The notes: generated by a model from the sequence alone, not told the origin. A DNA stretch of 64,000 nucleotides from Psilocybe cubensis (GCA_017499595.2 CM038999.1:3782001-3846000), one strand, 5' to 3'; positions 16,122 through 52,300 are shown, numbered from the stretch's first letter. A program made the numbers and translations.

Positions 16122-17592
16122 TCATTCTGCGTTTCCGTTGATAGAAGCCAGCCCGGAAGATAGAATTACCTTCGGACGTAACAGAACGGATTCATGCCAA
16201 TCTCCTGTGGTTCCAGATATCTTCTCCGCTCTCACGAGTCCCAGATCCGTCGTACAGAGAATCATGTCATGGCCGTTTTCCAACTTTCTCGCAGATGTCG
16301 TCCGAAGAGCGTCCTCCATCGTGGTAGCATTGTAGGGCACGTCGGGAGCAATGTAGAGGGCTTCAAGATCGCACGATGTAACACCCTCTCCGATTTGCTT
16401 GTTGAGTCGCTTCGCCAAATTCATCACCGTAGAGATTTGTCCAGAGAACCGATTCAGGATCCAATCATGTACGGTCATCAGGCTTTTGTTATAGCCCGCA
16501 GTAACGAAGATACTTGCAAAAGCATCGGCCATCTCGGACGTCAGGTCTGGATCCTGTGAAAGCATTCGCTGCAGATGCGTTCTGGTTAGCTGTCGCCAGC
16601 GACCAGACACAGCTTGTTCTTCTACAATATCAGAATGTAAGTTCCGTCACCATTCATTGCATTTGAGACAAACCTGATTCACGGACTCGCGCATAGATTT
16701 CGCTGAGCATGTGTTCGTCCTCTGGTGTTTCAAAACACCATGATGAGACTATCCAATGCGTATATGCGGCCATACTTGCTTGAAGAGCGATCTGAATGAG
16801 AATAGGGTCTTCATGGTGTTCAGTCGTCTTCAACAAATCTGCCATCCGAGGTCCAATAATTTCTTCAGTTCGTGCGTACGCCTCCTTCAAATCATCAGGT
16901 TCCATCGTCTCCGCCTCACCCGCACCACTGTCCACATCCGCTCCACTCATCGCGACATTGCCTCCGCCAGTTTCCTTTCCATCCTTTTTCTCGACACCCA
17001 ATTCTTCGGCCAGGACTGCCGCCGTTTGCATAATCTCAGCGTTCAAACCCTCCACCAATTTGATAACATCTGCGCCGGAAAGCTGGTCAGCTTTCGTCAA
17101 GAAAGCCTGGGCGCCTTTGAGTTCTGCTGTTCGGGTCCGAAGCAAATCGACTGCTTGCAAATTTTCTCCTTTTACCCGATTCAGTTCCGCTTCCAGCAGT
17201 TGATTTCGAGCACTGAGGGTCTTCGTCCGATCGACCAGCGTTCGGTTTTGCAGTTTGGCCCCCTCGAGGTCGCGACCGATATCCGCTACCTTCTTACGGA
17301 GGCCTTCGATCTCTTCCAAATTTGACAGCACTGCTATCTTGGTCTGCTGGACTTCGGCATCTCGCTTCTTCAACACATCCCGAAGCAGCGCCAACTCCTC
17401 CTCTTGTCGCCTATGCGCCTCGCGTTCATCTATTCGCCACTTTTGTACGTTCTTCCAGAGTGCAGCGTACTTCCAGGCCCCGTAAAAAGTTGCCGCCGAC
17501 AACCCCAGTACAGAGCAATATGTTGCAAATTTTGTTGTGGGCCAGAGCGATAGAGGAAGCTTCACTGGAGGAGCAAGAGGAGTGGGTTGCAT
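16122..17592 (-). CDS. Coiled-coil family protein X1: N-terminal hydrophobic segment, coiled coil, conserved helical + GrpE-like C-terminal domain
   Basis: ORFs 16654..17592 and 16122..16610 are joined by phase-1 intron 16622-16673 (RVRES/EEQAVSGRWRQLT). Putative TM segment FATYCSVLGLSAATFYGAWKYAALW. An alternative short first exon from ATG 17685 is possible. Confidence 0.8.
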
Positions 17593-18734
17593 TGTTTAGG
17601 TCGTTTAGAGAATTCGCATCGTCTTGGAGTTCTTACGCGTCTGGCAGGCTTGCTCTTTTGGCTTCCAGAGGTTGCGGTGCGCCATGAGGCGGAAACGTGT
17701 GGTTCGCCGGGTTGAGTATGGAACTTGGTCCAGCTCCCTCCCCTGGGCCTCGTGGGATCAAAATAGCACGACGCCAATTTTGACATGCAGTTTTGTCTCG
17801 GCTGATGGCCTCCCGCAAACCCTTCTGTAGACACACTGTCTTATCATGCGCGAAACGCAGATTGAACTGCGTATCTGCCCCACGTAGTGATGGATTTCTC
17901 AGGCTGGACAACCCTCAAACCTACTCATCGACCTCGTTTTGTTCCAACTCAAAAGCGGCGTTGATTATACTATCCGCCAGAATATTCATTTGCGTTTAAT
18001 AGCTCGAGTACGCGCGATGTCAGGAAGTTTGATGAGGAGTGTCGGAGGAATAAATCAAGACAAATGAGCAAAGAGTTCTTATCAGTGATCGTTTGGGCGC
18101 CATCCTACATTTGGATGTTTTCGGACACATGACTAGGTACCTGGGACGCTAAATATTGAACTATAAGGGGACCGTGTAGAGTTATACACTCCTGTGTTAC
18201 GACTTTGACAGGTTTGCAGTTCATTTTGGACAAACTAATCCCCAGTCGTTCCTGTGATTGAATCATGAAAACGCGCCGAAGTGTTATCATATGGGCATAA
18301 TTATACACGGCGGGCAATTGGCGATCATGTTTGCGGGACACAAAATATGAAAGGTAACCTCCACACCATCTTTGTCACAAGTTTAGGAATGTTTCTGGCT
18401 GCCTGGGATCGATTCATTTTCTGTGTATCTAGCAGAAAAGAAGTACATACTATCGATTTCTTGTACCTAAAGTCGGACAACAAGAAACAAACCCAAAAGT
18501 TCGTTTTTGTGACACCGATGGTGTCATAAAATCCTGCCTCGTAACCTCCCGCACACATGCCATTTGGCAACATGACGGCCAGCAATTGCCCACTGTGATA
18601 TATATAATCTTGCCACGCATCGACGATGACGTTTATGACTCGTGTTGATAAATTACGACAACCAGTGTCGGGTCTAGGTAGGTATGTACAACTAATTACA
18701 TGCTCGATATTATGGCTAAAGTAACAATCTCATC

Positions 18735-49441: not shown

Positions 49442-49760
49442 TAAATTCAGAAACTTTATTTATTTTCTGTGTAGCAGGCACTTGAGCGACTCAGGTTTAT
49501 TTATTAGTCATTAGTTTTAGCAATTGACTTGCTATCTGTATGATTCTTTTAAATTATTCCTGAACTAGTAGGATTATATTTAGCTTGAAAATATTGACTC
49601 GTCACCATGGAAAAACTGAGCATAATTTAAATGTTTATGGAGATCACAAATACTACAAATGAATGCGAATGCATACGTAGTAATGGGGCATGACGATATT
49701 GCGAATTCAATCCAGGGGTATCCAGTACCATAAATCAAGGAGAATTTTGTTCGTCAGGCC

Positions 49761-52300
49761 TCAGTTATGCGTTAGTTCGTCTGGTTCGTAAACGATTTCA
49801 GCGGGGCTCCTAAGAACAGAATAAAATGAGTCAATTTGTTGCGCAACCGCATATACGCATAAAATCACCTTTTCTCAACACCCTGGATTATCATTACAGG
49901 GAGATTGGTTGGTCAGTAATGTGGCCATAGCAGACCAAAAATACTCACATTTTCGTTCCATGCAATCTGTGCCTTCAATTCGGTCATTCCAAAGGATAAT
50001 ATGATATCGATTTCGATGCGATAGTACATCGAGTTACTGTTGATGGAGTAACAAAGAGGCACTGGTACCTGAGACGTATCTGCCGTCACAACACAGAGCG
50101 TAGAATACATTTCTGTAGAAATGGTTGTATGATAATTTAGCAATGGTCAAAGGCCAATCATATTAGTGCTTACTTCTGTCGACGTCTAACCACCGGGGGT
50201 TGGTATTTTCGCCGCGATAGCAACGTATACTTGAGGAGACGCTTTGTAAATCTGTTCGATTTCGTGACATTAGGCAATAGGATTGTCTGAATTCTTGAAC
50301 CTCCGAAACTTTCGTGTTCTTTTAAATCATACATTAGTCAGAATGCATCTCGACGCTGCAATAACGTGGACATGCCTTTGGTAAGATAACATCGAAAGCA
50401 CCGGAAATGAGCACACGACCATCAGACGCAACAAATTTTTGAGACATCCGGGCAATGTGTTCTGGGTTATTCGGCTGGAAAACGGCCGCATAGTTGGTAC
50501 CGTAAGCGTGCTTGGAGACTCGTGCGCCAACAAAATGATCGAGGTAGAAAGATATGGCACCATCGGCCACGGCCTTGTTTCTGTGGGAGACAGTTAGTGA
50601 TAATGAAAAAAAATGCTGCACTGAGCACATACACGTGGCTATCCGGGCGACTGATATCCAATCCATATGCAGAGAATCTGTCTTTGAGGTTGTTGAATAG
50701 CCAATCGCTTGCCGCGAAACCGCCAACGAGGAAGACTGACTATAGGGGAAAGCATGTAGTTTAGTCAAAGGTAAGCCGTAGAACGTAAACATGACAAACC
50801 GCGATTGCAGTCTTTGACGCAGCGCGTTGTTGTTCGATAGAATTTGCAATGCATTCAACAGATGGTTCGAAAAACGCGGCAACATCTGTCCTGTCGACGT
50901 AAGAGCAAGAAAAATTAACCAGCGGTAAGGATGAAAGGGATATGCTTTCTCACCCAAGGAGTTTCAATTGTCCTGAACGTATGTTGAGCGCAGGATCTTT
51001 GTCCCTAATGCCCCCAAATTTGATGAATTGCGCGTCTTCGGCGTTTCGGAATCTCAGCTTCGTCGTCTTGTCGAAGACCTTGGTAATGTACGGAATATCG
51101 TTGACGAAGCGAGAGCCTTTCAAAAACTCTGTATCATGGGTTTAGTTTTGGAATCTATTAAGAGTGATATTTAGATACCAACTTTCGAGATAGCTTTTTG
51201 CATTATTGGTCACGAAAATTGACCCCTGAAAATGACCTAGAAACCAGCTGGTCAGAAAAAGGGAAAAGGACCTAGAGATAGGAATACATTGAGGGGCAGC
51301 CATTTCTTCAAATGACTTGATGTCCTGAGACGCTTGCTTGTAGGCACTGATATCAATTGTACCTCCTCCGGCGTCAACGATCAGAATACCCTTTCCTTGC
51401 TATAGAAAAGAGAGAAGTCAGCCAGTCATGCTTTTAAGCAATAAATGATTCTAACCTTGATAGCCTCCGTAGTTAATCCACTTGAGATACAGAAATGAAG
51501 ACTGGCTTCTCCTTCAGTGACGAAAGAAAGCCGTCGTTGTCCAGCGGGACTGTCGGGAATAAGGCCTGCCAGGACTGCTGCTCTGCGCATGAGGCTCTGC
51601 TGAGCACCCTCCCACCCATTCGGATGAGTTAGAACGAAGTCTGTACGGGATTCCAAGTTTCGCCACAAATCCACACCGTTGGCGTGGGTCTCTTCGATAT
51701 ACGTGCGCGCGCATTGGTATAGATAGCGTAGGAAATCGGCGAATACTTCTGTCGCTGTCTTCCCTTCTGGCAACGGGGGAATCGTCTGGGTGACGTGGGA
51801 TGCTGATTTGGTCTTTGGCCGAAGATGGAGCTTGAACCTAGACGGATAAAAATGCCTTAGCGAAGTAGATACAATTCGTTTGTTCAAAAACTCTACCATT
51901 CCGTCCTTGGTGGCCATTCTTCCTCCTCAGCGATTTCTTCAACTGTTTCTTGCAGTGCCTCGGCACCGACAGCTTGAACGCGACCTTGTTTATCATATTG
52001 GATGACGGTTGGTATCTTTGAATCGCCGCCAACGTGCTCTTGAGCTGGATATCTAAGTATAACAATCGAGCATCAGTGCCTTATGTTGTATAAATGAATT
52101 TAATAAATACCTTGTTACCCCGCGAATTTCAGGAACTTCTCCCGGGTCAAGGATGCTGTGTAACACGAGTTTTAGATACGATGTTCTAACGGGGAGTAAC
52201 GATAAACGGACCTGTATGATATACCGCTGAAAGTGGTCCCAACGTCGAAGGCAAGGACCAGTTTTCGCTGCGAGCCACTGTAAGGTTGTCTGAGTGACAT
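49761..52300 (-). CDS. HSPA12-like atypical Hsp70 (copy D)
   Basis: MSLRQPYSGSQRKLVLAFDVGTTFSGISY, LTHPNGW, VTEGEASL, VDAGGGTID, LVGGFAASDWL, KAVADGA, SFGMTELKAQIAW; ends SPAEIVYEPDELTHN* (tca 49761-49763). Confidence 0.9.

Follow-up and report, generated by a model that had tools for sequence, protein, structure and literature searches.

In a 64,000-nucleotide stretch of the Psilocybe cubensis genome (GCA_017499595.2 CM038999.1:3782001-3846000; hereafter the window), four genes for HSPA12-like Hsp70-type ATPases (family H; genes A to D) lie beside four genes of an unnamed coiled-coil family (family X; genes X1 to X4). The same neighbourhood recurs in unrelated metagenome loci, and the two families have duplicated together. 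On balance, and with modest confidence, we favour the reading that X serves an orphan branch of Hsp70s as their own GrpE-like regulator or adaptor and that the window holds three blocks of a conserved two-gene module.

Three blocks of H and X genes

The window is fungal DNA, rich in introns. Its H and X genes form a first block of X1 and X2 on the minus strand followed by A and B on the plus strand, a second block of C (minus) and X3 (plus), and a third of X4 (plus) and D (minus). All-versus-all blastp of six-frame open reading frames (ORFs) found the exon ORFs of A to D to be 50-76% mutually identical, with E values as low as 1e-73, and X1 to X4 to be distant paralogs (25-45% identity, E 1e-6 to 4e-16). 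The original prediction had described four atypical Hsp70 genes and four coiled-coil paralogs in this three-block order, and blastp, tblastn and database proteins confirmed their number, coordinates, strands and order. Gene models were taken from the proteins P0008, P0294, P0308, P0121, P0159 and P0160 where these matched; an ab initio gene finder mis-spliced several junctions.

In the first block, X1 (16122-17592, minus strand) has exons at about 17592-16674 and 16621-16122 and encodes ~470 amino acids (aa), with a hydrophobic stretch at the N-terminus of the gene model; it is supported by ORF blastp to X2, X3 and X4 and by tblastn of X homologs, and its closest database relative is P0155 (57%). 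X2 (18735-21025, minus strand; exons 21025-19261 and 19207-18735) encodes 745 aa, matches P0160 at 98-100% and carries a long, disordered and coiled-coil N-terminal extension. It stands head-to-head with A across a divergent intergenic region of 786 bp (21026-21811). A (21812-24328, plus strand; 595 aa) matches P0008, whose source name is ‘Heat shock 70 kDa protein 12B [Psilocybe cubensis]’. The tblastn pieces were 70-100% identical, with the last two exons at 100%; pieces below 100% arose because the high-scoring segment pairs extend into introns. B (25416-27943, plus strand), an approximate gene model lying in tandem 3' of A, is the most diverged of the four H genes (nearest database relative P0063, 68%).

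In the second block, C (37324-39911, minus strand; 592 aa; P0294, exon pieces 100%) is head-to-head with X3, the two being separated by 255 bp (39912-40166) up to the annotated X3 start. X3 (40167-41221, plus strand; intron 40654-40709) is the shortest partner gene, encoding 332 aa and matching P0159 at 96-100% in two pieces. In the third block, X4 (47788-49441, plus strand; 533 aa; exon ends 48843/48896) is identical to P0121 (JR316_0002739; 100%) and converges on D (49761-52300, minus strand; 595 aa; P0308, exon pieces 100%). P0308 carries the name ‘Heat shock 70 kDa protein 12A [Psilocybe cubensis]’ at its source and P0294 is likewise a ‘Heat shock 70 kDa protein 12A/B’; it is from such source names (‘Heat shock 70 kDa protein 12A/12B’) that the putative HSPA12 label of A, C and D derives.

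The H-X neighbourhood recurs in other fungal loci

Metagenome contigs were scanned with the X alignment alone and H was sought afterwards in the retrieved loci. The scan returned 16 loci, 11 of which also contained H. In the other five, which lack H, X begins within 170 bases of the contig start, so that no upstream DNA is available. Among the 21 X gene models in these loci, 14 had upstream DNA; in 12 of the 14 an H gene lies immediately upstream on the opposite strand, and the remaining two follow another X. Start codons of the head-to-head pairs are ~0.2-2.3 kb apart, and eight distinct pairs remain once near-identical loci are collapsed. The H-X adjacency in the window exceeds chance and is not a local accident: of the 16 unrelated metagenome loci retrieved with X alone, 11 share this neighbourhood.

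The entire X1-X2/A-B block is mirrored in locus L011, where two H genes on the minus strand are followed by an X2-type and an X1-type gene on the plus strand. Locus L001 alternates H and X genes (H minus, X plus, H minus, X plus, H minus). In loci L004 and L007 the order is X plus, H minus, X plus, so that a convergent pair such as X4-D can arise at the junction of two head-to-head units. In Galerina, Flammula and Phlegmacium, the contigs with named X homologs are equal in size to those that carry H homologs of the same species, which is suggestive of adjacency but no proof of it.

H and X have duplicated together

Maximum-likelihood trees of H and X were computed without the exact or near duplicates L002 and L006 and the contig-start X fragments L004-0, L008, L010, L014 and L016. 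The H clade of A, B and L011 matches the X clade of X1, X2 and L011; the clade of C, L013 and L015 matches that of X3, L013 and L015; and the clade of D, L003, L001, L004, L005 and L007 matches the X clade of X4 and the same loci, in the same inner order. Only the row of L012, which has a long branch, was unstable. Pairwise H and X distances were correlated: Mantel r was 0.877 over 13 pairs and 0.751 when these were reduced to 10 non-redundant ones, and none of 20000 permutations reached the observed value in either set. X evolves faster than H (mean p-distance 0.71 vs 0.46).

Because the clades match and the distances are correlated, the H-X pair has been duplicated as a unit at least three times. 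The original prediction had regarded the two families as co-inherited and a single recent tandem duplication as insufficient to explain their adjacency. Both views hold: the immediate divergent neighbours and the co-phylogeny of neighbouring pairs speak for the first, and a single recent duplication is excluded because the three blocks belong to three old clades, each with orthologous pairs in other fungi.

H proteins retain an Hsp70-type ATPase core

In an alignment of 93 H sequences, the phosphate-1 (DxGTT), phosphate-2 (DxGGGTxD) and adenosine (GG) motifs show little or no variation, and all three are present in A to D. The profile of these 93 members matches the nucleotide-binding domain (NBD) of DnaK (1dkg_D) with an E value of 4.4e-7. 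Judged by motif and profile, H belongs to the Hsp70/actin-like (ASKHA) ATPase superfamily. In Pfam, the H relative P0001 scores above the HSP70 cut-off (32 bits vs 20.6), and a search with P0008 (A) by itself returned no family.

The profile similarity to DnaK stops at the end of the NBD, no full-length HSP70 match was obtained from Pfam, and C ends in ...ANLIFM and D in ...ELTHN, without an EEVD tail. The predicted H proteins lack the canonical substrate-binding domain, the lid and the EEVD tail, an absence expected of the HSPA12 subfamily. The original prediction had described HSPA12-type proteins as keeping the Hsp70 ATPase fold and diverging in the substrate-binding/EEVD region.

The family is large, with 1370 matches at E <= 0.001 in a word-limited search, many of them from Agaricales, Boletales and Polyporales. 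Among the 120 best H-family proteins, 36 are 980-1715 aa long and contain two or three tandem H units, in many Agaricomycete orders; they represent either genuine fusions or gene models that join tandem neighbours like A and B into one. A relation to Mmc1, raised by a weak Pfam Mmc1_C match of one H relative, was rejected, as the accessible part of the source describes Mmc1 as a dynamin-like pseudoenzyme, which is unrelated.

X is a large unnamed family with a GrpE-like order of elements

An exhaustive profile search found 2757 representative X clusters at E <= 0.001, of which 716 also passed E <= 1e-30. The N-terminus varies among members and is followed by a coiled coil. Beyond it lie two conserved parts, one helical and one of ~170 residues at the C-terminus, with an intron of conserved position between them. 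The N-termini differ strongly between paralogs: that of X4 is disordered, X2 has ~400 extra residues, and the X1-type protein of L011 has a hydrophobic segment (Kyte-Doolittle value 1.89). Six members searched singly and a set of 95 members yielded no Pfam domain, only coiled-coil noise, and the X profile searched against PDB sequences gave coiled-coil matches only, all before profile position 145, with no solved relative beyond the coiled coil.

An AlphaFold2 model of X4 from a 109-row alignment (mean predicted local distance difference test, pLDDT, 80) shows a disordered N-terminus and a 120-residue helix, followed by a helical and a small beta domain. A wide VIA-align scan with the full X4 model returned coiled-coil matches to the long helix only (Z <= 7.6), for which reason the short paralog X3 was folded as well (pLDDT 89.7, predicted template modelling score 0.85). 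The idea of a likeness to GrpE had been drawn from the domain order before the X3 scan: in the X models, as in GrpE, the chain passes from a long helix near the N-terminus through a helical bundle to a beta domain at the C-terminus.

When the X3 model was compared with 48,161 PDB chains in an unbiased scan, seven chains reached Z 5 and the top three were all GrpE: human GrpEL1 (9bls_B; Z 6.3, root-mean-square deviation (rmsd) 10.2 Å, 150 residues aligned), E. coli GrpE in complex with DnaK (1dkg_B; Z 5.9, rmsd 5.7 Å, 135 of 151 residues aligned) and Geobacillus GrpE (4ani_A; Z 5.8, rmsd 10.7 Å, 145 residues aligned). The alignments run from residue 1 of the model to ~315.

Language-model neighbours of X are unnamed fungal clusters, one of which has 4377 members, mostly from Ascomycota (score 0.93), and gives a hint that the family extends to that phylum. 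The nearest named clusters for both X3 and X4 (the latter as residues 215-533 of P0121) are MIEAP-domain proteins (scores 0.81 and 0.78) of molluscs, the animals in which HSPA12 has expanded, and plant GIL1/IRKI_C proteins; the MIEAP proteins may be remote kin, and we note both as leads only. A further lead is a Basidiomycota cluster with an X-like part by structure (template modelling score 0.68), in which 57% of the members carry an MMR_HSR1 GTPase domain.

A complex of C and X3 is predicted at the GrpE site

Complex prediction for C (P0294) with X3 (P0159) gave values of 0.74, 0.73 and 0.73 for the interaction prediction score from aligned errors (ipSAE), and the best of three controls gave 0.00. 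The partner pLDDT was 78, and contact agreement between runs was at least 81%. For calibration, in a eukaryote set 39 of 65 solved pairs that lacked a similar older complex came up to the ipSAE mark, as did two of 126 unrelated pairs.

Predicted contacts involve residues 40-64, 120-125 and a few beta-domain residues of X3, and residues 46, 51-58 and 298-332 of C. By profile alignment, C 53-58 corresponds to DnaK 28-33, the loop of lobe IB, and C 298-332 to DnaK ~262-304, the helix and hairpin of lobe IIB, both of which we take to be GrpE contact regions. The interface residues of X are more conserved than the rest of the protein (2.19 vs 1.55 bits; permutation p 0.004). The proposal that H is an ATPase with X as its dedicated regulator or adaptor gains support from this complex, in which binding is predicted rather than demonstrated.

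Transcription and splicing of the pairs

RNA contigs were examined for C, X3, X4 and D, in two runs taken as RNA from their spliced contigs and not from the record. In C and D, GT-AG introns of the gene strand (CT..AC on the plus strand) were removed in these two runs, whereas a DNA run showed no such removal; the RNA contigs show 12 joints inside D. In X4, an RNA contig breaks exactly at the annotated exon ends, and the DNA run had no such joints. C, D and X4 are transcribed and spliced.

Contigs of both RNA-like runs skip 40629-40694, a canonical GT-AG intron on the minus strand that overlaps the sense intron of X3. This points to a spliced transcript antisense to X3 or to a long 5' leader of C that runs through X3. 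Near the 3' ends of C and D (37325-37472 and 49811-49948), RNA contigs skip 146 and 136 bases and insert 12 and 11 other letters, respectively, a pattern suggestive of a micro-exon whose position C and D have in common. At the 3' end of C, the P0294 annotation differs from the RNA form.

The original prediction had also considered the pairs probably co-regulated. Short divergent intergenic regions in two pairs hint at this. Contig depths in the runs labelled X1 and X2 (names of runs, not genes) were 97 and 12.5 for C, 38 and 23 for X3, 6.8 and 28.4 for X4, and 12.5 and 120.8 for D; they shift together within C/X3 and within X4/D, but contig depth cannot rank genes and was given no weight. Across 11 H-X intergenic regions we counted one trimeric and 11 dimeric heat-shock elements, against 5.0 ± 2.3 dimeric elements in shuffled sequences, with no clear enrichment; none was found in the X2/A region.

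Proposed mechanism and competing explanations

In the reading we favour, H is an HSPA12-like ATPase of the Hsp70 superfamily with intact nucleotide-binding motifs, and X a member of a large unnamed fungal family whose long helix probably forms a coiled coil. The ancestral unit would have been a head-to-head H-X pair. Duplication of the whole pair gave rise to at least three old lineages, namely A/B with X1/X2, C with X3 and D with X4, in which the partners have remained linked. According to the model, X most likely binds the NBD of its partner H over the top of the cleft, through the lobe IB loop (DnaK 28-33) and lobe IIB. From there it would serve this one partner as a nucleotide-exchange factor or regulator of the GrpE kind, possibly as a dimer, and its variable N-terminus may position the ATPase at different sites. 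A wider version, in which X founds a hitherto unrecognised family, spread across the fungi, of GrpE-like exchange factors or adaptors that work in the cytosol with HSPA12-type Hsp70s, with each lineage matched to its own partner and the N-termini sending pairs to different sites, is more speculative and less likely than not.

A number of observations weigh against a GrpE-like regulator. The fold match is weak (Z < 8, rmsd 5.7-10.7 Å, and such Z values are common for helical models), Foldseek returned nothing at E <= 0.001 for the X3 and X4 models against the PDB, and X has ~150-190 helical residues beyond GrpE. An hhalign comparison of the 95-sequence X alignment with E. coli GrpE gave a probability of 0.3%, and Pfam returned no GrpE, BAG or DnaJ match for six X members or within the top 25 families for 95 members; on sequence alone, X lies outside the GrpE family (PF01025). 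The complex prediction covers one pair (C+X3) and a single method, run without alignments, and the H interface is not more conserved than the remainder of H (p 0.16). Fusions of H and X were not found: none of 120 H-family proteins had an X match and none of the listed X-family proteins had an H match. X4 and D are convergent rather than divergent, and the X3 contigs show the opposite-strand intron (CT..AC) instead of the annotated sense intron. Finally, the adjacency evidence is confined to contigs on which H shares 59-81% identity with proteins from several genera of Agaricales (L012, only 45%).

H and X may bind, with X serving as a targeting scaffold, anchoring adaptor or client and not as an exchange factor, and with the GrpE likeness reflecting a common arrangement of a helix and a small domain. 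The coiled coil and variable N-terminus would then recruit the ATPase to a membrane or structure. The strongly differing N-termini of X4, X2 and the X1-type protein of L011 fit such a role, as do a GrpE match of only Z ~6 and the missing sequence relation to GrpE; the X-like domain of the GTPase-containing Basidiomycota cluster would imply that the module is also used with other NTPases. The predicted contacts, however, fall on lobes IB and IIB, the exchange-factor site, and not on the C-terminal domain of H, and within X it is the predicted contact surface that is conserved. We consider this explanation rather unlikely.

It is distinctly improbable, in our estimate, that the module belongs to a fast-diversifying neighbourhood of non-self recognition or stress conflict, in which H and X would act as sensor and effector and antagonists would drive their expansion. 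Both families are large, X diverges fast relative to H, and the H and X copies are clustered and vary in number. At 10349-14677 (plus strand), the window also contains an ORF of TPR_10/TPR-S repeats (1242 aa), after which a CHAT protease domain (E 7e-21) continues in the next reading frame; the related ORFs 56265-57002 and 61555-63024 likewise encode TPRs. A TPR and CHAT architecture is typical of NLR-like conflict proteins. PMC13580251 also notes an unexplained HSPA12 expansion in bivalves. Against this, no TPR, CHAT or NACHT genes were apparent by ORF inspection, the only check made, in the flanks of the metagenome loci, where the recurrent neighbour is an ABC-type ATPase-like gene; and orthologous pairs have been kept in matching clades over several Agaricales lineages, steadier than typical recognition loci.

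That H and X are linked through a common bidirectional promoter or joint copying without direct protein contact, the complex score being a false pass, we regard as very improbable: seven of 44 blind neighbouring gene pairs, some possibly non-binding, did pass the method's own test, one pair alone was folded as a complex and X4-D has no common promoter, but the score of 0.73 exceeds the range of passing mismatches (0.34-0.59), the three controls all gave 0.00, the X interface is conserved and the linkage has persisted through at least three old duplications and rearrangements.

Relation to known chaperone systems

As in DnaK-GrpE, the gene of an Hsp70-type ATPase is paired here with that of a protein in which a small beta domain accompanies a long helix and a helical bundle; GrpE takes the first three places among the structural matches to X3 (Z 5.8-6.3), and the predicted X contact lies on the loop aligned to DnaK 28-33 and on lobe IIB. 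X differs in its lack of sequence similarity to GrpE, its far larger helical domain and its variable N-terminus, and its predicted ATPase partner is HSPA12-like without the canonical substrate-binding domain; the pair is moreover nuclear and fungal. According to the accessible text of PMC13580251, a cytosolic GrpE was not retained in eukaryotes.

In Hsp70-BAG systems, a conserved Hsp70-binding module is combined with diverse N-terminal regions that direct the chaperone to different places, a scheme that the layout of X may share. X differs in having no BAG domain by Pfam and in adding a beta domain, where BAG is a three-helix bundle. We know of no BAG gene that adjoins its Hsp70 gene.

With metazoan HSPA12A/B, the H genes share the source names of A, C and D, the divergent ATPase core, the absence of an EEVD tail and lineage-specific expansions, such as that in bivalves (PMC13580251, in its accessible parts). 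A partner comparable to X is not described for the metazoan proteins in the accessible parts of PMC13580251 or PMC2266713. As far as the accessible text goes, a 2026 review gives the function of HspA12 as unknown and its mechanism as partially or completely untested (PMC13580251), and in an older paper HSPA12 homologs were confined to vertebrates in the set of genomes surveyed (PMC2266713). The ribosome-associated complex Ssz1-Zuotin is another case of an atypical Hsp70 with one dedicated partner (PMC13580251, accessible parts). Zuotin, unlike X, is a J-domain protein: no J-domain, BAG or HspBP1-Fes1 domain of Pfam was found in six X proteins (E <= 1) or in the top 25 families for 95 members (E <= 10). 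To our knowledge, the Ssz1 and Zuotin genes are neither linked nor co-duplicated.

We found no description of the H-X pair in the literature, in line with the original prediction, which knew of none in fungi; the search did not cover supplements and took in PMC10282164 in part, so that a mention in the developmentally regulated orthogroup tables of that paper is possible. HSPA12-type proteins are a widespread Hsp70 branch, for which a co-duplicating partner predicted at the exchange-factor site offers a concrete cofactor hypothesis; if it is true, X would be the first cofactor for this orphan branch. The prediction points to mutable residues and to the cognate pairs C+X3, D+X4 and A+X2, and gives a proposed name and role to an unannotated family of ~2700 representative clusters. 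More generally, fungal genomes would contain operon-like pairs of chaperone and cofactor, which gene order by itself can expose.

Neighbouring genes

The blocks had been described as separated by unrelated AA14, HMG, REX4 and carrier genes. Pfam recovered three of these: a fragment of an AA14 lytic polysaccharide monooxygenase at 28485-28814 (E 1e-5, under the family cut-off), an HMG box at 34997-36232 (E 4.6e-5) and a mitochondrial carrier at 46071-46457 (E 5e-8). The fourth ORF (44810-45595) gave no match in a Pfam search, which leaves its identity as REX4 unconfirmed.

In the metagenome loci, an ABC-type ATPase-like gene (P-loop GSGKTTLLALL) lies downstream of X in L004 (6380-8557), L007 (6395-8467) and L008 (853-2947); it looks like local synteny in one lineage rather than a part of the module. 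Next to the D/X4-type pair stands a mitochondrial-carrier-like gene, in the window as well as in L003 (311-658), with the order of H and X relative to the carrier swapped between the two, which fits remodelling of a former tandem array of pairs.

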